DNA from: an uncultured delta proteobacterium
GTDB lineage: Bacteria > Myxococcota > Myxococcia > SLRQ01
Direction: 5' to 3'
Length of the DNA: 64,000 nt
Assembly: GCA_963727485.1 (NCBI GenBank)
Contig: CAVSGM010000002.1
Coordinates: forward strand, 1,823,779 to 1,887,778
The position numbers and the translations under genes were made by a program. This document shows, piece by piece, positions 2,329-14,487 of this stretch; the first letter of the stretch is position 1; each line of letters starts with the position of its first letter. Under the pieces are notes generated by a model. It saw only the letters and a program-made list of their open reading frames with translations, was not told where the DNA came from and made no database searches.

Positions 2329-3841
2329 TCACTCCGGGTCGTCCTCGGGGGCCGCCGGGAGGCGGACGATGACCTCCGTGCCCCCGCCGGGCCGATCGGC
2401 GACCTCGATGCGCCCGCCGAGGGAGGTGACCACCCCGTGGGCCGCGGCGAGGCCGAGGCCGGTGCTGCGCTCGCCGTCCCAGGCGTCGCCGTCCCAGGCG
2501 GAGAAGAAGGGATCGAAGACCCGCCCCCGGAGGTGCTCGGGGATCCCCGGCCCCCGGTCCAGGACCGACAGGCGCACCCGGCCGGGCTCGCCGGGGCCGG
2601 TGACCACCGTGACCTCCGGGCGCCCGGAGGCGGCACCGGCGCGCAGGGCGTTGGTCACCAGGTCGAGGATCACCTGGGCCAGGTGGGTGCGGTCGCCGAG
2701 GGCCCGCGGCGCCGGGTAGTCCTCCCGGACCAGGGTCGCCTCCCGCCGCAGGCGAGGGGCCGCCAGGGCCAGGGTGCCCGAGACCACCTCCGCCAGGTCC
2801 ACCGGCTCGACGCGGGCGCCGCCCCCGGTGGCGGCGAAGGTCCGGAGGCCGCCGATGACCCGCCGGGCCTGGGCCACCGCCTCCAGGGCCTCGGCCAGGG
2901 CCTCCTGGAGGTCGTCGCGCACCGGCGGGGGCACGCCTTGGCCGAGCTCGGCGAGCTCGGTGGAGACGAAGCCCAGGGTGGCCTTGATCACCGCCAGGGG
3001 GTTGTTGAGCTCGTGGGCGGCGCCCCCGGCGAGGGTGCCCAGGGCGGCGAGGCGGTCGGTGGTCACCAGGCGCCTGGCCAGGTCCCGGCGGGCGGTCCGG
3101 TCCTCGAGGACGGTGAGGCCCGCCGGGCCGGCGTCGAGCTCGAGGCGCCCGGCGGGGACGGCGTCGAAGAGGGCCTCGGCGCCGTCGGCCCGGACCCACC
3201 GGGACTCCCGGCGCTCGGGGACGTCGGTGCCCGCGAGGAGCCGATCCATCCGCGCCCCCGCCTGGGGCCGGTCGTCGGGGTGGAGGAGATCGAGGACCGG
3301 GAGGCCCAGGAGGGCCGCCGGGTCGTCGTGGCCCAGCATCCGGGCCAGGGGGTCGTTGCCGTAGGCGATGGTCCCGTCGTCGCGAACGACGAGGACCCCC
3401 ACCGGGAGGTGGTCGAGGACCCGGCGCAGGGCCGCCTCGGTCCGGGCGGAGCGCTCCCGCGCCTCGGTCTCGTCGGTGACCTCGACGCTCTGCCCCACGA
3501 CCCCGCCGCCCTCGCCGGGGTAGGGGTACTTGAAGTTGATGAAGTGCCGGCGCCGGCCGCCGACGGTCACCCATCCCCGGCTCACCTGGGGGAGGCCGGT
3601 CTCGAGGACCGCCCGGTCCACCGCCCGCAGGGCCCCTCCCTCGTCGGGGCCGAAGACCTCCAGGTCGGAGCGGCCGAGGAGCTCCGACGGGTCCCGGCCG
3701 GTGAGCGCCCCGAGGGCGGCGTTGGCGAAGCGGTACCGGCCCTCGGCGTCCTTCACGTAGGCGGGGGTCGACGCCTCGTCGAGGAGGGTCGAGACGTGGG
3801 CCAGGAGGGCGTCGGCGGCGGGGTCGGGAATCGTTGGGCAT
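2329..3841 (-). CDS. PAS-domain sensor histidine kinase (one extra base near the start)
   Basis: Two PAS-like segments, H-box [31 protein letters not shown]. Removing one base at GAATC 3828-3832 joins ATG 3841 ([13 protein letters not shown]) to ORF 2329..3756. Confidence 0.85.
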
Positions 3842-3933
3842 CCTTGGGAGCGATTCTACCCACGCGGTGCCCCCTCGCCAGCCCCTCCCCACGACCATGG
3901 GGTCCACCGGCGCCCTGGTCTATGCTCCTCGCC

Positions 3934-5028
3934 ATGGCGAGCACCACCGGCGTCCTCTTCCGGGTGACCACCTTCGGCGAGAGCCACGGCCCCGCGGTGG
4001 GGGTGGTCCTCGACGGCTGCCCGGCCGGGCTCGAGGTCGACCTCCAGGCGGTGCAGGCCGACCTCGACCGGCGCCGCCCGGGGCAGGGGCCGCTGACCAG
4101 CCCCCGGCAGGAGCGGGACCGGGTGGAGGTCCTCTCGGGCCTCAAGGACGGGGTGACCCTGGGCAGCCCGCTGACCCTCCTGGTCCACAACACCGACGCC
4201 CGCCCGGGGGCCTACGACCACCTGGCGCACGTCTACCGCCCCAGCCACGCCGACTACACCACCGAGGCCAAGTACGGCCGCCGGGATCACCGGGGCGGGG
4301 GCCGGGCCAGCGCCCGGGAGACCGTGGGCCGGGTCGCCGCCGGGGCCGTCGCCCGGGCGCTCCTCGCCCGGGACTTCGGGGTGGAGGTGGTCGGCTGGGT
4401 GGGCTCGGTGGCGGACGTCGACGCCGAGGTCGACCCCCTCACCGTCACCCGGGAGGCGGTGGACGCCCAGGCGGTGCGCTGCCCCGAGCCCGGGGCCGCC
4501 GGGAAGATGGCCGAGGCCATCGAGGCCGCCCGCCGGGACCGGGACACGGTGGGCGGGGTGGTCGGCTGCGTGGCCCGGGGGGTGCCCGCGGGGTGGGGCG
4601 AGCCGGTCTTCGACAAGCTCACCGCCGACCTCGCCAAGGGGTGCATGAGCCTGCCCGCCGCCCGGGGCTTCGAGGTGGGGCTCGGCTTCGCGGCCACGCG
4701 GATGCGCGGCTCGGCCCACAACGACCCCTTCGTGATGGCCGGCGGCCGGGTCCGGGCGCCGTCGAACCGCAGCGGCGGGATCCAGGGCGGCATCTCCAAC
4801 GGCGAGCCGGTGCTCTGCCGGGTGGCCTTCAAGCCGGTGGCCACGATCTTCCAGCCCCAGCAGACGGTCACCGACACCGGCGAGGCGGTGGAGCTCACCG
4901 CCAAGGGGCGCCACGACCCCTGCGTGCTCCCCCGGGCGGTGCCCCTGGTGGAGGCGATGGTGCTGCTCACCCTCGCCGACCACGCCCTGCGCCAGCGGGC
5001 CCTTGGACCCGCTCCATCCTCGGCGTGA
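3934..5028 (+). CDS. aroC: chorismate synthase
   Basis: [52 protein letters not shown] signatures. Confidence 0.97.
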
Positions 5029-5235
5029 GGTGCTCGCCGTCGGGCGGCGGGTGCGTCACCGTCGATGATGCGGCGACCAGGCCTCCCTCGGCACCCCTCT
5101 GAACGCGTCACGTTGGGATACGTTGGGGCGGATTGCCCCAGTGGGATACGTTGTGACGCATTCGACGGGTCGACCACCCCGCGCCGCCCGGGCACGGCTG
5201 ATCGAGCCGCGAGGCGCCGTCCGCCACAGGCGCCT

Positions 5236-6100
5236 TCAGGGTCCGTCGGCGCCGGCGAGGTAGTCGGGGTAGCGCAGCTCGACGCCGAAGACCGCCTTGG
5301 CCTTGGCGTTCGTCACCCGCTTGGAGCCCAGGAGCGTCGGCGACGGGGCCTCGCTGGCCGGGGCCACCTCCGGCGCCGGGAGCCCGAGGCGCCCGGCGAG
5401 GAAGGTCGCCACCTCCCGGAGGGACGCGGGCCGGTCGTCGGCGAGGTTGTAGATCCCCGAGGCGTCGGGGTCGGCGGCGAGGGCGCGGGCGAGGGTGGCG
5501 ACGATGTCGTCGACGTGGATCCGGTTGAGGAGGTTCTCGCCCCCGCCAAAGAGACGCACCCGGCCGGCGCGCAGGCGCCCCTCGAGCCCCCGGCCCCGGC
5601 CGTAGATCGCCGCCAGCCGCAGGACGATGCCGGTGGCCCCGAGGCTGCGCGCCCCCTCGAGGAACACGGTCTCCGCGTCGAGGCGGGCGGCGGCGCGATC
5701 GGGCCCGGGGTCCACGGGGCTCTCCTCGGTGACCTCGCCGCCGTCGCGCTCGGCGTAGACCCCGGTGGTGGACAGGTAGATGAGCGCCCGGGGCGCGGCG
5801 GCCGGCGACGACGTCGAGGACCGCCCGGGCCCCGGCGTCCCGGCGCGGGTCCGGGCCCACCGGGGGCACGGTGTGCACCACCACCGCCCCCTCGGGGCAG
5901 ATATCGCCGAGGCCCTCCGTCTCGGGAAGTGCACACACCGCGACCTCGACGCCCCGACCGGCGAGCTCCTCGGCCCGGGCGGGATCGCGGAGGGTGCCAG
6001 AGACGGCGATCCCGTGGCCCCGGAGGGTGCGCGCCAGGTGGGCGCCCACGTGGCCGAGACCGACGACGACGACGGGCGGGGGCGCGGTGGCATCGGGCAT
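5236..6100 (-). CDS. NAD-dependent epimerase/dehydratase (atypical SDR, YeeZ-like); frameshift near 5790
   Basis: N-terminal VVVGLGHVG in ORF 5108..6253 continues as IYLSTTGVY...LRLAAIYGRGR...NRIHVDD...YNLADD...YPDY in ORF 5236..6441. Confidence 0.85.
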
Positions 6101-6225
6101 GCAGCGTCCATAGCACGGCGCCGGGCCGGTCGCACCCGGACGCACCCGGGGCCGAAAAGTTGACCGATCCCCACCCTGGGCGACGATGGACGGGCCCGGC
6201 GACCTCCGCCGGACGAGGAGGGAAC

Positions 6226-6597
6226 ATGGACGCGATCCGAACCGAGACGGCACCCGCCTCCACCGCCGTGACCTCGACCCGCAGGGCGCCGGCGAGCGCC
6301 GAGCGCCCGCCCCGGGTCCACGCCGACCTCTCCGTCGAGGTCCGCACCCGCCAGGGCCCGGTGTTCCGCCCGGTGCGCGACCTGTCCCTCACCGGGCTCT
6401 ACGTGGCCGGCCTCCGGGCGCCGGTGGGCCACGAGATCCACCTGACCCTGGCGTTCCCCGACGAGGCGCCCCTGTCCCTGCGGGGCCGGGTGGTCCGCTG
6501 CGACCCGGGGACCGACGCCGGGGTGGCCATGGTCTTCAGCCGCATCGGCTGGGACGACATGCTCACCATCGCCCGGTACCTGGCCCCCCGGATCTGA
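6226..6597 (+). CDS. PilZ domain protein (c-di-GMP receptor)
   Basis: RxxxR-like ERPPR and DxSxxG (DLSLTG) motifs, GRVVR; SD GAGGAGG upstream. Confidence 0.85.
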   Translation: MDAIRTETAPASTAVTSTRRAPASAERPPRVHADLSVEVRTRQGPVFRPVRDLSLTGLYVAGLRAPVGHEIHLTLAFPDEAPLSLRGRVVRCDPGTDAGVAMVFSRIGWDDMLTIARYLAPRI

Positions 6598-6618
6598 GTG
6601 GGGTCATAGCCGACCCAT

Positions 6619-6648
6619 TTTACAGTCAGACTGTGAATTCTCTACACT
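6619..6648 (+). promoter_or_regulatory. putative sigma70 promoter with overlapping palindromic operator
   Basis: TTTACA (6619-6624), 18-bp spacer, TACACT (6643-6648); perfect inverted repeat ACAGTC-A-GACTGT at 6622-6634; locally AT-rich. Confidence 0.55.
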
Positions 6649-6690
6649 GACGGACGTCCTCGCCGGGGAGACACGCCAGGACCCCGACCC

Positions 6691-7131
6691 TTGACCGACG
6701 ACCCCTCCGTACCCGAGAGCCCCCCCGCCGAGCCCACCTCGGGCCGGCGACGATTTCTCCGGGAGGGCGCGGGGATGCTGGCCCTCGGGGCCCTCGCCGT
6801 GGCGCCCGGCGGCCGCGACCGCGCCCTCGACGCCCTCCGGGGCCGGGTTCGCACCGTGCGCCTGGGCAGCGCCCGGCCCCACCCGGCGCCCGGTGTCAGC
6901 GCCCGGCGCGCCGGTGACGAGCTGGTGGTCTCCATCCCCGGCGCCGATCCCGGCGTCGCCCTCAACGAGACCGCCGCCCAGGTGTTCCTCGCCTGCGACG
7001 GCCGGCGCACCGTCGACGCCATCGCCGCCTCGCTCTGTCGGCGCTACCGCGTGTCGCCGGCGCGGGCCCGCCGCGACGCGGGGGCGGTGGTCTCGGCGCT
7101 GACGCGCGCCGGGTGCCTCGTCCTCGGCTGA
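6691..7131 (+). CDS. PqqD/RRE family protein with N-terminal twin-arginine (Tat-like) signal
   Basis: SGRRRFLREGAGMLALGALAV followed by the PqqD pattern LNETAAQVFLACDGRRTVDAIAASLCRRYRVS...DAGAVVSALTRAGCL. Confidence 0.8.
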   Translation: MTDDPSVPESPPAEPTSGRRRFLREGAGMLALGALAVAPGGRDRALDALRGRVRTVRLGSARPHPAPGVSARRAGDELVVSIPGADPGVALNETAAQVFLACDGRRTVDAIAASLCRRYRVSPARARRDAGAVVSALTRAGCLVLG

Positions 7132-7158
7132 TCCCCGGCGTCCCCGCTCCGGGGCCGC

Positions 7159-7369
7159 TCAGGGCCGGCTGGGGGCGCAGGGTCCCGACGGGCGAGCAGA
7201 TCTGGGGGTGGCAGGCGTAGGGTCCGCAGCTCGAGGACGGCGCCGCCCGGGGGATGGGGATTTTGATCGACCGGATCCGAGGGCGGACGTACTTCTTGAC
7301 CCCGTCGACGATCGCCTCCTCGGCGGCCTCCAGGGCCTCGTCCTCGATGTCGTTGCGGTCGTCGCTCAT
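7159..7369 (-). CDS. putative RiPP precursor peptide (69 aa after removing one G at 7180-7182)
   Basis: Acidic leader, KKYVRPRI motif, core SSSCGPYACHPQICSPVGT(CAPSRP*). As sequenced the ORF runs to 6962 and overlaps the convergent PqqD gene; a 1-nt correction gives TGA at 7159-7161 and a fourth CxP unit. Confidence 0.65.
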
Positions 7370-7375
7370 GGTCCG

Positions 7376-9085
7376 CTACCAGGCGGTGGACCAGGTCAGG
7401 CGCCAGCCCGCCGGGAACCGCTCGAGCCAGTACTCTACCACCTGCGTGGTCTCCCGGTCGCCCTGGTCGGCGGTGCGCAGGGCGTGGACCAGGACCTCGG
7501 GGTAGTTGCGGGTGCCGGTGGTGTAGACCGAGAGGATCCGGGTGTGGACGGTGGCGTCGGTGTCGGTCCGGCCGGTGGCGATCCGGGCCCGGGCGGCGTC
7601 GTCGAGGGCGTCGCAGTAGAAGCCGTCCATGGTCGCCCGGTAGGCCTCCGGGTCCCGGGCGTTCACCGCGGCGTCGGCGTCGTGGATCACCCGGGCGATG
7701 GCCGCGCGGTCGGCGTCGGGGACCGGGGTGGGCGGCTGGGAGAGGTAGGGGGCCAGGGCGTCCTTCCAGGCGGCGCGGAAGGCGTCGAGGCCCTCCCCGA
7801 CCACGTGCTGGAGCAGGTGGTCCATCGCCCGGGCCAGGGAGGGGCCGTCGCTGACCTGGTCGCCGAGGGTGTCGACCAGGGTCCACCCGTGCCAGGTCAC
7901 CGCGGCGGCGCGCCACAGCTCCAGGAGCTTCGCCCGGCCGTAGCGGGAGACGAAGAGGCTCACGAACGAGCCGTCCCGACCGTAGTTGCGGCCATAGACG
8001 TCGCTGTCCTCGAAACCGTAGCGGTAGGTCGCGTTCTCCTCGCCGGCGACCAGGTCGTCGGCGTAGGCCTGGTGGCGGTCCCGGCCCGAGCCGTCGAGGT
8101 AGACCGCGAGCCCCTCGTCGAGAAACGGCAGGTGGTCGGTCTTCCCGTCGACGGCGGTGGCGAGGACGTGGGTGAGCTCGTGGCCGAAGTGGTGGCGCTC
8201 GTAGCTGTCGTCGCCTTGGAGGTAGAGGACGTCGACCTCGTGCTTCCAGGGGAAGGCCTGGCCCACGCTGTAGCCGTGGGCGAAGGCGGCCATGCGGTTG
8301 GGCGAGAGGACCACGGTGATCCGCGGGCGGGTGGTCAGGCCCAGGAACTCGCTGATGCGGTCGTAGGCCCGCTGGCGATCCTGGAAGATGGGGTCGAGGT
8401 CGGCGGCGGCGGCGGTGCCCGGGAGGTAGCGCAGGTCGAAGGGGCCGCGCTCGGTGTCCTGGTAGGCGACGCCCGCGTAGGTGGGGACGTCGGCGCAGAG
8501 GACCGGCGCGATCGGGCCGCCCGCGTCGCCGCCGGCGCCGGGGCCGTTGTCGTTGCCCGCGGTGCCGGGGCCGTTGTCGCTGCCCGCGGCCCCCTGGCCG
8601 TTGCCGTTGCCGTTGCCGAGGCCGCTGTCCGGGCCGGCGCCGGTGCCGCCGGTGTCGCCGTTGCCTCCGGCGGTGCCGTTGCCTCCGGCGGTGCCGTTGC
8701 CTCCGGCGGTGCCGCCCGCGCTGCCGCTGGCGCTCCCGCCCTGGTTGGCGCTTCCGTCGTCCTCGCTGCCGGTGCGCGGCCCGGCGCCCGGGACGCCGTC
8801 GAGGCCTCGAAGGTGCAGGCCCCCCGGGAGGCCCGGACGGACGGCGCGCCCAGGCCGGGTCCGCCAGCCGGGGAGGGCGCCGGGGCGGGTGGCCAGGGAC
8901 GCCACCGGGACGCGCAGCGCGCTCGGCGTCGCCACCGGGCGGGTCGCCGCCGCCGGGGCGCCGCCGGCCGTCGCCGGGCTGGCGGCGGTCGTGGTCGGGG
9001 GCGCATCGGTGGGCGGCGCCGCCGGGGCGGTGCAGGCGGCGGCGAGGAGGACGAAGGCGAGGGACGGGGGGGCGAGTCGGCGCAT
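7376..9085 (-). CDS. lipoprotein zinc metallopeptidase (gluzincin/peptidase MA-like) with Gly/Asn-rich linker
   Basis: Lipobox LLAAAC; HFGHELTHVL followed by FLDEGLAVY (HExxH...E); stop 6 bp upstream of the precursor start. Confidence 0.75.
   Translation of the reverse strand: MRRLAPPSLAFVLLAAACTAPAAPPTDAPPTTTAASPATAGGAPAAATRPVATPSALRVPVASLATRPGALPGWRTRPGRAVRPGLPGGLHLRGLDGVPGAGPRTGSEDDGSANQGGSASGSAGGTAGGNGTAGGNGTAGGNGDTGGTGAGPDSGLGNGNGNGQGAAGSDNGPGTAGNDNGPGAGGDAGGPIAPVLCADVPTYAGVAYQDTERGPFDLRYLPGTAAAADLDPIFQDRQRAYDRISEFLGLTTRPRITVVLSPNRMAAFAHGYSVGQAFPWKHEVDVLYLQGDDSYERHHFGHELTHVLATAVDGKTDHLPFLDEGLAVYLDGSGRDRHQAYADDLVAGEENATYRYGFEDSDVYGRNYGRDGSFVSLFVSRYGRAKLLELWRAAAVTWHGWTLVDTLGDQVSDGPSLARAMDHLLQHVVGEGLDAFRAAWKDALAPYLSQPPTPVPDADRAAIARVIHDADAAVNARDPEAYRATMDGFYCDALDDAARARIATGRTDTDATVHTRILSVYTTGTRNYPEVLVHALRTADQGDRETTQVVEYWLERFPAGWRLTWSTAW
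8657..8714. repeat. 18-bp tandem repeat (about 3.2 copies) encoding TAGGNG
   Basis: GCCGTTGCCTCCGGCGGT x3 read directly. Confidence 0.9.
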
Positions 9086-9261
9086 GCCCCGGGTAAGAGC
9101 AGCGGCCGTGCCACCGGGCCCGAACCGGGAAGCGCCAATGGTTCCGAGGATCTGGGGGCTGCGCGGGTGAGGATTGCCCGGGTCGGCGGGGCCGGGCGGG
9201 TCACCTGGCACCCGGCCCGCGGGGACCCGGGCCCCGCCCCGCCGTGCTATGCTCCGTGCGG

Positions 9262-11524
9262 ATGGCCCGGGCTTCCCTTCCCATCCTCGGCACGGGGGCG
9301 GTGGCACCAGCGGCGCCCCGGCCCCTGCGGTTCGCCTGGCTGGAGCTGACCCACCGCTGCAACCTCCAGTGCGACCAGTGCTACACCAACAGCACTCCCC
9401 GCACGCCCCTGGGGAGCCTGCCCACCGAGCGCTGGCACCGCCTCCTCGAGGAGATCGTCGCCGCCGGGGGGAAGACGGTGCAGTTCACCGGCGGTGAGGC
9501 CACCACCCACCCGGACCTGGTCCCGCTCCTCGAGCACGCCGCCGGGCTCGGCCTCGCCGTCGAGCTGTTCACCAACGCCACCCGCCTCGACGACGCCCTG
9601 ATTCGAGCGCCTCGCCACCCTCGGGGTGGCGGTGGCCACCTCGCTGCACAGCCACGAGGCGGCGGCCCACGACGCCATCACCCGGACCCCCGGGAGCCAC
9701 GCCCTCACCGTCGACGCCATCCGCAGGCTGGTCGCCCGGGGGATCGAGGTCCGGGTCGCCGGGGTGCTCATGGCCGGCAACGCCGACCACGGCCCGGCCA
9801 CCGAGGCCCTCATCCGGCGCCTCGGCGTCCTCACCCCGTTCAAGACCGACCCGGTGCGCCCCACCGGCCGGGGGCGCAAGGCCGAGTCCCCGGCCGAGGT
9901 GGCCAGCTGCACCGTGTGCGACGACGGGACCTTCCAGGCGATGCACACCGATCCCGCGGGCCCGGCGCCGTCGACCTGCTGGGACGGGCGCATCGCCGTG
10001 AGCCCCCGGGGCGAGGTCTACCCCTGCATCTTCAGCCGCGGGGCGAAGGTGGGCAGCGTCGCCGACACCCCGCTCCCCCAGGTCCTCGCCCGCGGGCCCC
10101 TCGCCGGGCTCTGGGCCCTGACCACCGACGACGTCCCCGAGTGCCGGGACTGCGACCGGAAGGGCGTGTGCTTCGACTGCCGGGCCCTGCCCCTCACCGC
10201 CCTCGGCGACGTCACCGCCAAGAACCCCCGGTGCGACTACGTGCCCCCGGCCAGGCGCCCCAGGCGCCCGCGCCCCGAGGCGGCGAGGGTGCGCCCGGGT
10301 CTCCTGGGCCGGGACCTGGCCGGCGAGCGGCTCCTGGTCGACGCCGCCACCGCCCGGCTCCACCGCCTCGACGCCGGGGCCGCGGCGATCCTCGACGCCC
10401 TGGCCGCCGGCGCGTCGGAGGCCGCCCTCGCCGCGGGCCTCACCCGGCGCTTCGGCCTCGCCCCGGACGAGGCGGCCTCGGAGATCGCCACCGTCGCCGA
10501 CGGCCTCTGGGACGCGGGGCTCCTGGTGGACCCCGCGGGCCGGGACGTCACCGGGGACCGGGTCCTCGCCGGCGTCGCCCCGCCACCGGTGCCCGACGCC
10601 CTGGGCCTGGCCGCCGGCGCCGCGGACCCGGCGGCCGGGCGCGCCGTCGCGGACACCCCCGCCGCCGAGGTCCCCCGGCGCGCTCTCCTCGGCCTCCTCG
10701 GGCGCACCGTGGCCCTCGCCGCCGACGCCGCCGCCTGGGCCGAGCTCGAGGCCCTGCTGGCCCCCCTGGCCGCCGACCCCGGGGCCACCCCCGAGGCCAC
10801 CATCTCGGTGGTCTCCCGCCGCTCCGCCCCCCACCTCGGGGCGCTCCACCACGTCCTGGTCGACGGCCGGCAGGTCCGGGCGGTGCGGACCCCCGGCGCC
10901 CTGCGCTCGGCGGTCGAGGAGGTGCTGTGCACCCTCGCCGCCGAGGGCCAGGGCGACCTGCGCCTCCACGCGGCGGTCCTGGTGGGCCCCGCCGGGGCGG
11001 TGCTCATCCCCGGGGCCTCTGGGGCGGGCAAGAGCCTGCTCGCCCTCGCCGGGGTCGCCGCGGGCCTCGGCTACGGCACCGACGAGGCGGCGCGGATCCC
11101 GCTGGTCGGCGAGGTGGTGGTCGACGCGCTCCCCAAGCCGGTGACCGTGAAGGCCGCGGGCCGGCCCTGGGTCCCCCCGGCGCTGACGGCCCGGTGGATC
11201 CCCCCGGACGTCGCCGACCCCGACGACTACGCCTGGGTGCCGCTGGTCGGCAGCGCCCCGGCGCCGGTGGTGGCGGTGGTCCTCCCGGATTGCTCCGGCG
11301 CCACCGAGGGCCTCGCCCCCTGCGAGGCCGGCGACGCCGCCGAGGCCCTCCTCGCCGGGGTCTTCAACCTCGGCGGGGCGGGGGTCGCCGCGGGCCTCGA
11401 GGCGGTGTGCCGCCTGGTCGAGGGCGCGGCCTGCCTCCGCCTCGACACCCGGGACCTCCCGGCCGCCGGGGCGCGCCTCGCCGAGCGCCTCGGCCAAGGC
11501 GCGGCCCGGGGCACCGGCACCTGA
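9262..11524 (+). CDS. radical SAM/SPASM enzyme fused to PqqD/RRE and HPr-kinase-like domains (one extra T at 9600-9604)
   Basis: CNLQCDQC at 9358-9381, TGGEA, FTNA; SPASM CWDG...GEVYPC...CRDCDRKGVCFDC...[23 protein letters not shown]...LTRRFGL...LWDAGLL; kinase LHAAV...GASGAGKS...GTDE. Confidence 0.85.
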
Positions 11525-11537
11525 GCTTCGCCGGGCG

Positions 11538-13165
<1,628 letters not shown>

Positions 13166-13356
13166 GGGGGCCTCCTCGGTTGCAGGTTCGGGGGCGCAAG
13201 ATACACATCTGCCTGCGGTGATCCACCCCGCGCGCGTGCCGCGGTGCGTCGCGCGGCGGCCTCGGTGGCGCGTCGCCGCGGCGGGGCCGAGGCCGCGGCC
13301 CGCGGCTTGCCGCCGGGGTCCCGGTGGCTAGAAGGGCGCCTGAGGGGGAACGCGAG

Positions 13357-14487
13357 ATGGACACGCGACGCTGGCTGGGCCTCGCTCTTTCGATCGCCAC
13401 GCTGACCGCCGGCTGCGGGAAGCCCGCCGAGCTCGCGGTGGGCACCTACAATGCCGGCCTCGCCACCGGCTATGTGCCCTGGGCGGCACAGCGGGCGCCG
13501 AAGGTCGCCTCCGGGCTCGCGGCCCAGGACCTCGACGTCCTCTGCGTCCAGGAGGTGTGGTCGGCCGACGACGTCGCCCGGGTGAAGGCGGCCACCACAG
13601 ACCGCTACGGCGAGGCGGTCTTCCTCGATCCGGATCCCGGGAGCGCCGCCGCCCTCGAGCCCGCGTGCACCGGCGCCGAGCTCGACCCCCTCCAGAGCTG
13701 CGCCGAGGCCAGCTGCGCCGGGGTCCCGGTGGACCAGCTCGCCGGCTGCGTCCTCGACCAGTGCGGCGTCGAGTTCGCCGCGGTCTCCCAGAGCTGCTCC
13801 ACCTGCCTCGCCGCCAACATCGGCGCCAGCTTCTCGGAGATCCGCACCGCCTGCACCACCGGCGGCTCCGGCAGCTACGCCTTCGGCGGGAGCTTCGGGA
13901 TCGGCCTGCTCACCGGCCTCCCGGTGCAGGCCACCAGCCACGTGGTCCTCGACTCCACCTACAACCGCCGGGCGGTGATCCACGCCCGCCTCGACGCCGG
14001 CGCCCTCGGCGAGGTCGACGTCTACTGCACCCACCTCTCGGCGATCTTCTCCAACATCCCCTACCCGGGCGAGGGGAGCTGGGAGGCGGAGCAGGGGGCG
14101 CAGATCCAGGCGATGCACGCCTTCGTCTCGCGCACCGCCGGCGCCGGCAACCCGGTGCTCGTCCTCGGCGATCTCAACTGCGGCCCGAAGGCCACCTCGG
14201 CCAGCGCCGAGGCCGAGGCGAACTACCAGGCGGCCCTGGCCCCGGGCTACGCCGACCCCTACGCCGCCACCTCCGGGGCCACCTGCACCTTCTGCCAGGA
14301 CAACCCCCTGGTGGGCGCCTCGGGGACCTCGGTGCTCATCGACCACGTCCTGGTCCGGGGCGGGCTGAAGGCGGTGGACAGCGCCCGGATGCTCACCGAC
14401 GAGGTGACCTACGAGGCCGATGGCGCGACCCGGCAGACCCCCCGCTCCGATCACTACGGCCTGAAGGTGGTGCTCCAGGCGAAGTAG
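13357..14487 (+). CDS. endonuclease/exonuclease/phosphatase family lipoprotein with Cys-rich insert
   Basis: Lipobox LTAGC; GTYNAG, DVLCVQEV, THL, LGDLN, IDHVLV, SDHYG. Confidence 0.88.
   Translation: MDTRRWLGLALSIATLTAGCGKPAELAVGTYNAGLATGYVPWAAQRAPKVASGLAAQDLDVLCVQEVWSADDVARVKAATTDRYGEAVFLDPDPGSAAALEPACTGAELDPLQSCAEASCAGVPVDQLAGCVLDQCGVEFAAVSQSCSTCLAANIGASFSEIRTACTTGGSGSYAFGGSFGIGLLTGLPVQATSHVVLDSTYNRRAVIHARLDAGALGEVDVYCTHLSAIFSNIPYPGEGSWEAEQGAQIQAMHAFVSRTAGAGNPVLVLGDLNCGPKATSASAEAEANYQAALAPGYADPYAATSGATCTFCQDNPLVGASGTSVLIDHVLVRGGLKAVDSARMLTDEVTYEADGATRQTPRSDHYGLKVVLQAK

Follow-up and report, generated by a model that had tools for sequence, protein, structure and literature searches.

The locus

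The window analysed here is a stretch of 64,000 nucleotides from an uncultured delta proteobacterium of the Myxococcota (GenBank assembly GCA_963727485.1, contig CAVSGM010000002.1, positions 1,823,779 to 1,887,778 of the forward strand). At positions 6691..7131 of its forward strand, a TTG-initiated open reading frame (ORF) encodes a protein of 146 amino acids. This is a genuine protein of the PqqD family, that is, a recognition element (RRE) of ribosomally synthesized and post-translationally modified peptides (RiPPs), with a conserved signal predicted to be of the twin-arginine translocation (Tat) type. The gene, called Tat-PqqD below, belongs to a small cluster which also encodes a precursor peptide, a predicted lipoprotein peptidase and an enzyme with radical S-adenosylmethionine (SAM) and SPASM domains (Table 1).

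Table 1. Features of the Tat-PqqD cluster, with positions in the window
Feature	Position	Strand	Evidence or location
Promoter-like site TTTACA-18 nt-TACACT	6619..6648	+	Gap of 93 nt (60% G+C) ahead of the ORF
Twin-arginine-type signal region, residues 1-41	6691..6813	+	Sequence features, conservation of the RR pair, model confidence (pLDDT), third-position G+C (GC3)
Arg-rich linker, predicted helix at residues 41-59, R..RL...RP motif	6811..6876	+	Charge, model, alignment
PqqD/RRE winged-helix domain, residues 63-146, and stop codon	6877..7131	+	Pfam, model, Foldseek
Precursor peptide gene, convergent with the PqqD gene	7159..7369	-	Reading frames, alignment with genomes G002 and G003, metagenome contigs
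Predicted lipoprotein metallopeptidase	7376..9085	-	N-terminus MRRLAPPSLAFVLLAAAC, low-complexity linker, HELTH
Fusion of radical SAM/SPASM, signal-less PqqD and HprK-related P-loop domains	9244..11524	+	Profiles, G003 orthologue, metagenome contigs

The N-terminal extension and its start codon

An earlier interpretation made from the letters of the window (the sequence-only reading) had placed a twin-arginine motif and a hydrophobic stretch ahead of a PqqD pattern, and both are found at that place, with G-R-R-R-F-L-R forming residues 18-24 and MLALGALAV residues 29-37. As a possible refutation it had named a true start further downstream, at ATG 6775. Translation from there would yield an ordinary cytoplasmic RRE of 118 amino acids, with the RR motif lying in the 5' leader, and this alternative is highly improbable. 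The ATG does have the better Shine-Dalgarno-like sequence (GGAGG at a spacing of 6 nt, compared with only AGGA 8 nt before the TTG), and TTG is rarely used as a start codon. However, the corresponding residue, Met29, is replaced by Ile in one and by Leu in the other of its two nearest homologues, which are 77% and 62% identical and come from a word-indexed search of 5.8 billion proteins. The called starts of these two, MIDDP and MSKPK, align with TTG 6691, and all three proteins share GRRRFL without a change. The content of G and C at third codon positions (GC3) in this frame is 0.50 over the 18 codons before the TTG, 0.86 over codons 1-28 and 0.96 over codons 29-146; the rise from 0.50 to 0.86 indicates that the coding signal begins at the TTG. 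Furthermore, the copy in G002, which together with G003 is one of two other genomes from the family of the window's genome, starts with TTG, and neither ATG nor GTG occurs from there to the RR motif.

The promoter-like site upstream of the gene is a consensus match only, agreeing with the sigma-70 consensus at 9 of 12 positions; two such sites occur in 6400-9600, compared with a mean of 0.0 in 50 shuffles. As the site at 6619-6648 lies upstream of the TTG, a transcript starting there would include this codon. An independent metagenome contig (run X2, record 9) is identical to the window over 6500-6811.

The PqqD domain

The PqqD pattern itself stands as claimed, by profile as well as by predicted fold. 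PF05402 (PqqD) matches residues 89-142 with an E value of 1.7e-12 and 47.9 bits, the gathering score being 23.4. Matches to the NCBIfam families remain below their thresholds, with 28.1 bits against 70 for the lasso family NF033530, 23.4 against 46 for the PqqD of pyrroloquinoline quinone (PQQ) synthesis, and 14.4 against 35 (E 0.056) for TIGR04353, the HPr-rel-A PqqD chaperone; for TIGR04248 (ScmD, cut-off 100) there is no match at an E value of 0.1 or less. The protein is therefore placed by these cut-offs in the PqqD/RRE family, outside the curated ScmD, HPr-rel-A PqqD and lasso B1 families. In an AlphaFold2 model built on six relatives, the predicted local distance difference test (pLDDT) is below 50 for residues 1-40 and 57-71 for the block with helix 41-59, and from residue 61 it lies between 82 and 96 per 10-residue block. 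The modelled domain has strands at 63-65, 70-74, 77-82 and 85-91 followed by helices at 93-101, 108-119 and 123-139, and Foldseek matches it to PqqD (5sxy) and to the lasso B1 proteins 6jx3_B and TbiB1 (5v1u), with template modelling (TM) scores by target of 0.76-0.88 and root-mean-square deviations of 1.6-2.0.

A complex of residues 41-146 with residues 1-62 of the precursor was predicted with an interface score (ipSAE) of 0.41 (0.41, 0.41 and 0.40 in the single runs), while the best of three controls scored 0.00; contacts agree by at least 90% between the runs, and the pLDDT of the partner is at least 48. Of 157 solved complexes, 116 reach the mark used for such predictions, compared with 2 of 215 mismatched pairs, and at an ipSAE of 0.60 or less only 18 of the 157 solved complexes reach it, as do both passing mismatches. 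RRE-leader complexes have been solved before, so the prediction may reflect likeness to these structures only. It lends weak support to binding of the precursor leader by the domain of Tat-PqqD.

The Tat-type signal

The n-region of the signal is variable and acidic, with proline, and is followed by S-G-R-R-R-F-L-R at residues 17-24, with the RR pair encoded at 6745-6750. This is similar to S/T-R-R-x-F-L-K, the consensus of Tat signals. The hydrophobic h-region, GAGMLALGALAVAPGG, spans residues 26-41 and consists of 16 uncharged residues of the Gly/Ala/Leu type with a mean Kyte-Doolittle value of 1.43; in four relatives it is 16-24 residues long with means of 1.5-1.8. Its best 19-residue window reaches 1.15. 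A stable membrane helix would be expected to score higher, and a Tat signal therefore fits better. The Arg-rich linker that follows brings a net charge of +5 within 30 residues (+5 to +8 over five family proteins), and R57, L58, R62 and P63 of its motif are conserved among the relatives. These statistics on h-region and charge cover five proteins and omit the second copy of G003 (L022), since its upstream RR had been anchored on. Two further candidates were rejected: a Sec signal, because the RR pair is conserved and the h-region rich in Gly and Ala, and a lipoprotein signal on the PqqD protein, because the end of the h-region has no Cys.

Conservation of the RR pair had been proposed as a check on the signal, and the outcome is clear: R19 and R20 are invariant in the six-sequence alignment of relatives, and among 17 N-termini from distant relatives, which are described below, 16 have RR and one KR. 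Three further copies in G002 and G003 carry SRRDLI, RRRLLG and SRRALL, each ahead of an uncharged stretch, and in a six-frame reading these copies show LSRRDLIGGLLGAGSAAILVGALQ, RARRRLLGLGASALLLAAAPPAPALALG with a TTG start, and a GTG directly before SRRALLRGLGGLAVVLGTG, the last being the signal stretch of L022. A rule for Tat signals was defined as [RK]R.[hydrophobic]x2 followed by at least 12 uncharged residues with a mean Kyte-Doolittle value above 0.8. It is satisfied by 1.15% of 20,000 composition-preserving shuffles of residues 2-60 of the window protein; the corresponding share is 0.5-3.5% for eight further family members. The genome of the window encodes one TatC (222.4 bits) and three TatA/B/E proteins, all over the respective cut-offs.

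An uncleaved N-terminus might instead keep the RRE at the inner membrane. It would be an anchor inserted by Tat, or else a reverse signal-anchor with the domain remaining in the cytoplasm, and the peptide would mature at the membrane. The charge after the h-region in the five proteins would favour a cytoplasmic C-terminus by the positive-inside rule, and the c-region of the window copy has no clear cut site, the only AxA-like site being A-L-A at residues 34-36, inside the h-region. By contrast, the shortness and weak hydrophobicity of the h-region argue against an anchor, and in distant members c-region sites are clear (AFA-K, ALA-N, AAA-R, LMA-D and AWA-F), the first four being canonical AxA ends. 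In addition, the strictly kept [ST]RRxF[LMI] corresponds to the Tat consensus and not to a generic anchor. On balance, a membrane tether is rather unlikely.

Distribution of Tat-PqqD proteins

A profile of six sequences was compared with 1.84 billion representative proteins and gave 5929 matches at an E value of 0.001 or less. The best 150 were examined together with one further protein (P0001), each anchored on the PqqD domain by a hidden Markov model of the domain alone; as the search profile included the signal, this ranking favours signal-bearing proteins. Among these 151 proteins, fewer than 25 residues lie ahead of the domain in 98 and at least 25 in 53. The extended proteins comprise 20 that satisfy the Tat rule, 8 with a hydrophobic stretch but no RR, and 25 with neither. 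In one of the 20 (P0039) the motif lies deep within a long protein and is not a signal, and another protein (P0008, DRRRFLGRALLF...) fails the rule only through an Arg that interrupts its h-region. Members rich in Lys and encoded at low G+C retain the RR pair, as in SKRRFLKL, ISRRSLLTASL...SEA-R, FSRRVFL...LMA-D and QDRRYVML...AFA-K, and their keeping of both RR and an AxA end argues against a mere artefact of the Arg content of high-G+C genomes. In one of the proteins (P0144) about 170 residues of Pro/Thr-rich repeats (PTTPA) separate a Tat-type signal from the PqqD domain.

Within the phylum of the window, for which 401 genomes were sampled, full matches to signal plus domain occur only in G000, G002 and G003, and 21 other PqqD loci read in this phylum have no RR/hydrophobic extension. 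A search of genome contigs with the single window protein found no relative. A second centre lies in the class around a metagenome-assembled genome of the Syntrophaceae (locus L064), where full-length matches were found in 23 of 201 sampled genomes; one such member bears the source name 'PqqD family protein [Syntrophales bacterium]'. The 17 distant N-termini mentioned above were read from 17 of 21 loci (leaving out L101-L104) and follow the pattern [S/T/A/Q]-R-R-x-[F/L]-[L/M/I/F], the KR protein being a variant of it. The layout common there is [S/T]RRxF[L/M/I], a weak h-region and often an AxA site.

Precursor, peptidase and enzyme of the window cluster

The precursor has an acidic N-terminus, a leader with the motif KKYVRPRIRSIKIP of the YxxPxI kind and a Cys/Pro-rich core of C-x-P-x-x repeats. 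Homologues occupy the same place in G002 and G003, and Y27, P30, R33, C48, P50, C53, P55, C58 and P60 are invariant in the three sequences, which share [KR][KR]Y[VL]xPx[IV]R[ST] and CxPxx cores. In their alignment none of the three has a signal peptide. As assembled, the frame of the window precursor extends to 6962 and thus 170 nt into the PqqD gene. Contigs of metagenome runs X1 (4.17 of 4.17 depth) and X3 (2.58 of 2.58) have one base fewer at about 7187, and without this base the precursor reads GPCAPSRP and stops at 7161-7159. The shorter frame agrees with the end of coding-like GC3 near 7169 and with the precursors of G002 and G003, whose tails are short. An overlapping gene corresponding to the 135-aa antisense ORF 6962-7369 was rejected on the same grounds, as the coding signal ends near 7169 and the contigs have the base fewer at 7187.

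The stop codon of the peptidase gene lies 6 nt ahead of the precursor ATG. HELTH occurs about 302 residues after the Met of MRRLAPPSLAFVLLAAAC, and Peptidase_MA_2 matches with 22.8 bits, below its cut-off of 32.4. An orthologue in the same position in G002 has 39% identity (E 2.1e-69). The linker of the peptidase (about 8520-8750, reverse strand) is a Gly/Asn/Gly/Thr/Ala repeat at which metagenome contigs pile up and break, with depths of up to 18.6 and several loose ends.

The enzyme combines Radical_SAM, SPASM and PqqD domains with a match to TIGR04352 of 41.3 bits, the cut-off being 200. The window copy is broken into two frames near 9602, while its orthologue in G003 is a single frame of 784 amino acids; the identity is 71% before this break and 52% after it. 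Contigs of X1 (2.2 of 4.2 depth), X2 (3.3 of 5.9) and X4 (3.3 of 3.3) have one base fewer at 9602. The extra bases relative to the short-read contigs, at about 7187 and 9602, each break a frame and are either assembly errors or true strain frameshifts. The aldehyde dehydrogenase gene at 11538-13445 (reverse strand) is also split, with Aldedh positions 7-334 in 11900-13165 and 333-459 in 11538-12029, which may be another discrepancy of one base.

The sequence-only reading had noted that the cluster is without a nearby transporter, and no transporter family was indeed found among the ORFs of window positions 1-17.4 kb. The neighbours in this region are DAHP synthase, a PKD lipoprotein, histidine kinases, chorismate synthase, an epimerase, a PilZ protein, aldehyde dehydrogenase, an EEP-family protein and enoyl-CoA hydratase. 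The PilZ gene (6241-6597, forward strand, 43.1 bits) immediately precedes that of Tat-PqqD; G003 has a similar small gene in its position (L021 9769-10131, reverse strand), and the flanking genes for the epimerase and chorismate synthase are syntenic. At this G003 locus, on contig C16, no MA-like peptidase was found. The locus encodes instead, at 2825-4987 and 5085-6626 on the reverse strand, a 720-aa lipoprotein of Cys-rich repeats and a second radical SAM protein (HxsC-like, below cut-off).

Distant clusters of the Syntrophaceae type

At L064 the Tat-PqqD gene and the start of an ScmE-like radical SAM/SPASM gene overlap, and after the ScmE-like gene comes one for a Cys-rich precursor; the opposite strand holds genes for ScmC-like, ScmF-like and ScmD-like proteins, the last being a plain PqqD, and all these matches are below the NCBIfam cut-offs. 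A Pfam survey of 13 further distant loci (150 ORFs within 5 kb) found radical SAM, or radical SAM/SPASM, in 10 and a plain PqqD beside Tat-PqqD in 9. ABC_tran occurs at one of the 13, 5 kb away and beside an AMP-binding enzyme.

The precursors of these clusters have a leader of a recurring form. In the stretch read, [LA][PA]YEPP is present at 15 of 21 loci, in 16 copies, and the 14 copies readable past YEPP all continue with x-I-x-[DN]-L and, 5-8 residues later, with A-[HYF]-A and Q, A or D. Repeats of the Cys-x-x-G-S type come after the AxA. A hydrophobic signal core is absent from all 14 readable precursors. The distant leader can therefore be described as a docking motif of the YxxPxI kind joined to a site of the signal-peptidase type, the sole signal core of the locus residing on Tat-PqqD. 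Matches to a degenerate DNA pattern for LPYEPP occur in 36 of 201 genomes, and there are scattered matches to a reversed control pattern as well. Twenty matches from genomes without Tat-PqqD, G598 not among them, were checked; 19 were chance occurrences in unrelated frames and one, in G518, was real.

The commonest neighbours in the 13 distant loci are genes for AAA_22 (10 loci), HD_5 (10) and LMWPc (9), and PF14907 nucleotidyltransferases (NTP_transf_5) are found at 5. A cassette recurs at L098-L117, in the class of G401, which consists of a PEP-CTERM-type AAA_22 ATPase, a low-molecular-weight phosphatase, an HD_5 protein and an HprK/ScmC-like protein, and which also includes a PF14907 nucleotidyltransferase and a Kinase-PPPase. 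The one AAA_22 protein compared is similar to the XrtA/PEP-CTERM ATPase TIGR03015, with 252.7 bits where the cut-off is 324.5. TIGR04249 is matched weakly by six of eight tested ScmC/HprK-like neighbours of about 300 residues, and the distant Tat-PqqD proteins score 20-30 bits on TIGR04248. At three loci (L098, L100 and L115) no radical SAM gene lies within 5 kb of Tat-PqqD, and genes for HprK-like, HD, low-molecular-weight phosphatase and PEP-CTERM-type ATPase proteins are present; L100 has DUF3485 and TPR genes, and L115 has the same plus the exosortase EpsH.

From this company Tat-PqqD might be seen as a protein of an HprK-related kinase system, similar to HPr-rel-A or SynChlorMet (SCM) and linked to exosortase and PEP-CTERM proteins. 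It would then bind a ligand other than a peptide modified by radical SAM, and its connection with the precursor would be secondary. Apart from the neighbours just listed, the HprK-related domain of the window enzyme agrees with this. Against it stands the position of the gene directly beside the precursor and radical SAM genes in the window, in G002 and on contig C16 of G003, as well as the presence of radical SAM/SPASM at most of the distant loci surveyed and of the Cys-rich precursor at 15 of 21. Such a role is unlikely as the main explanation.

A proposed model of Tat-dependent peptide export

The reading favoured here, with a probability of roughly 50%, is that the free RRE carries the leader-bound, modified peptide through Tat as a passenger. 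Modification would take place in the cytoplasm, where the fused RRE of the radical SAM/SPASM-HprK-like enzyme would bring in the precursor. The leader would then be handed to the free Tat-RRE, and Tat would export the folded RRE-peptide complex in hitchhiker mode. Outside the cytoplasm the lipoprotein metallopeptidase would cut off the leader; in the distant Syntrophaceae-type clusters, the signal-peptidase-type AxA site in the leader might take this part instead.

Carriage of the precursor through Tat had already been suggested in the sequence-only reading, and this suggestion is partly supported. Several features of the clusters fit the model. The precursor has an RRE-type YxxPxI motif but no signal peptide. 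The free RRE looks spare, as the enzyme has a PqqD of its own and plain PqqD proteins accompany Tat-PqqD at 9 of 13 distant loci. Removal of the leader outside the cytoplasm fits because the gene of the lipoprotein peptidase lies immediately upstream of the precursor and is likewise placed in G002, and a route without a transporter fits because no transporter gene was found around the cluster and ABC_tran is confined to one of 13 distant loci. Finally, the distant class repeats the arrangement, with precursors that have AxA sites without a hydrophobic core.

The same signal would also be explained if Tat exported the RRE alone and the protein worked outside without cargo. It might then offer the lipoprotein peptidase a precursor which had arrived in some other way, retain the leader after cleavage, or serve as a receptor or in immunity. 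That the peptidase is a predicted lipoprotein is compatible with such roles, and the orphan copy of G003 described below needs no cluster. However, with precursors that lack a signal peptide and no exporter nearby, the way out of the ligand is left unexplained. The use of Tat rather than Sec for a domain of about 100 amino acids without a cofactor would also be accounted for most simply if the domain left folded with something bound to it. Export without cargo is consequently held to be unlikely.

Some observations weigh against the model of a carried passenger. The main facts outside it are the G003 copy that stands as an orphan and the lack of a nearby radical SAM gene at three distant loci. 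The orphan, L022, lies on contig C15 of G003 at 9093-9551 (reverse strand), between genes for SpoVR/DUF444 and an M23 peptidase, and the 19 kb read around it contain no radical SAM gene, no YxxPxI precursor and no peptidase. At L098, L100 and L115, where radical SAM is missing, Tat-PqqD may therefore serve a role other than RiPP export. The converse case is an orphan precursor in G518, a genome without a PqqD match at an E value of 0.001 or less: this precursor of the LPYEPP...AYA type (L139, contig C49, 9489-9722, reverse strand) lies between a chemotaxis receptor and housekeeping genes, and no radical SAM gene was found in the 7.3 kb read, which are the last part of 12.3 kb. With the window peptidase as query, no peptidase was found in G001, G003 or G004, and its absence from G003 counts here. 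The leader of the window precursor has no clear AxA site, nor does the c-region of the window's Tat-PqqD, and the weak complex prediction fails to separate the free RRE from the one fused to the enzyme. The Shine-Dalgarno-like sequence ahead of ATG 6775 belongs on this side as well.

In a more general form, which is put forward more tentatively, the system may represent a split signal peptide: the RRE would provide the Tat signal in trans, and the precursor leader would contribute only a docking motif and a cut site. This would be a transporter-free route, present in at least two distant lineages, for Cys-rich peptides modified by radical SAM enzymes.

If the proposed mechanism is true, it gives RREs a new task as export chaperones, and it adds to the passengers of Tat a new class, the modified peptide held by its leader. 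It would account for missing transporters in such clusters. It would also offer genome mining a simple marker for clusters with products that act outside the cytoplasm, and engineered strains a compact two-part tag for the export of modified peptides.

Comparison with known systems

RREs are usually viewed as docking modules of the cytoplasm, and the export of RiPPs is assigned to ABC (ATP-binding cassette) or other dedicated transporters. PqqD and the discrete RREs belong to the same family as the ORF at 6691-7131, by its PF05402 score, and have the same fold. RREs described so far act in the cytoplasm and are not known to carry a signal peptide, whereas the window protein has an N-terminal extension of 60 residues with a Tat-type signal. 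A search mostly outside subscription journals found no paper that connects PqqD/RRE proteins or the export of RiPPs with Tat signals.

Lasso peptide leaders bind B1 proteins via a motif of the YxxPxI/L type, and the precursor leaders of the cluster carry a motif of this type. In contrast to lasso clusters, the window has a radical SAM/SPASM enzyme, and no Pfam match to a lasso cyclase or B2 protease occurs among the ORFs scanned; nor is Tat-PqqD, with its score on NF033530, a member of the curated B1 family.

The SCM system provides a further parallel. Proteins similar to ScmE (TIGR04250, 221 bits), ScmF (TIGR04251, 327), ScmC (TIGR04249, 30.5) and ScmD (TIGR04248, 39) are encoded at the distant loci, with scores below the cut-offs of 400, 400, 125 and 100, respectively. 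In the window enzyme, parts of this system are united in one protein, namely radical SAM/SPASM, a plain PqqD and an HprK/ScmC-like P-loop domain. Compared with SCM, Tat-PqqD is an extra, second PqqD protein and not ScmD. HPr-rel-A (TIGR04352 with TIGR04353) likewise pairs a PqqD-family protein with an HprK-related kinase, and the PF14907 nucleotidyltransferase genes of the distant loci add to the likeness. Set against this are the low scores of the kinase-like domain (41.3 bits against 200) and of the ORF itself (14.4 against 35).

The export step has its nearest counterpart in the hitchhiker cases of Tat, in which the large subunit of E. coli hydrogenase-2 is exported with HybO, and DmsB with DmsA. 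The logic is the same as that proposed here, as one partner bears the twin-arginine signal and a bound partner without a signal leaves along with it. The difference lies in the passenger. In the known cases the partners are stable, cofactor-containing enzyme subunits, whereas the passenger proposed here would be a modified peptide of 60-70 residues which is held by its leader on a domain of about 85 residues and from which the leader would be cut later.

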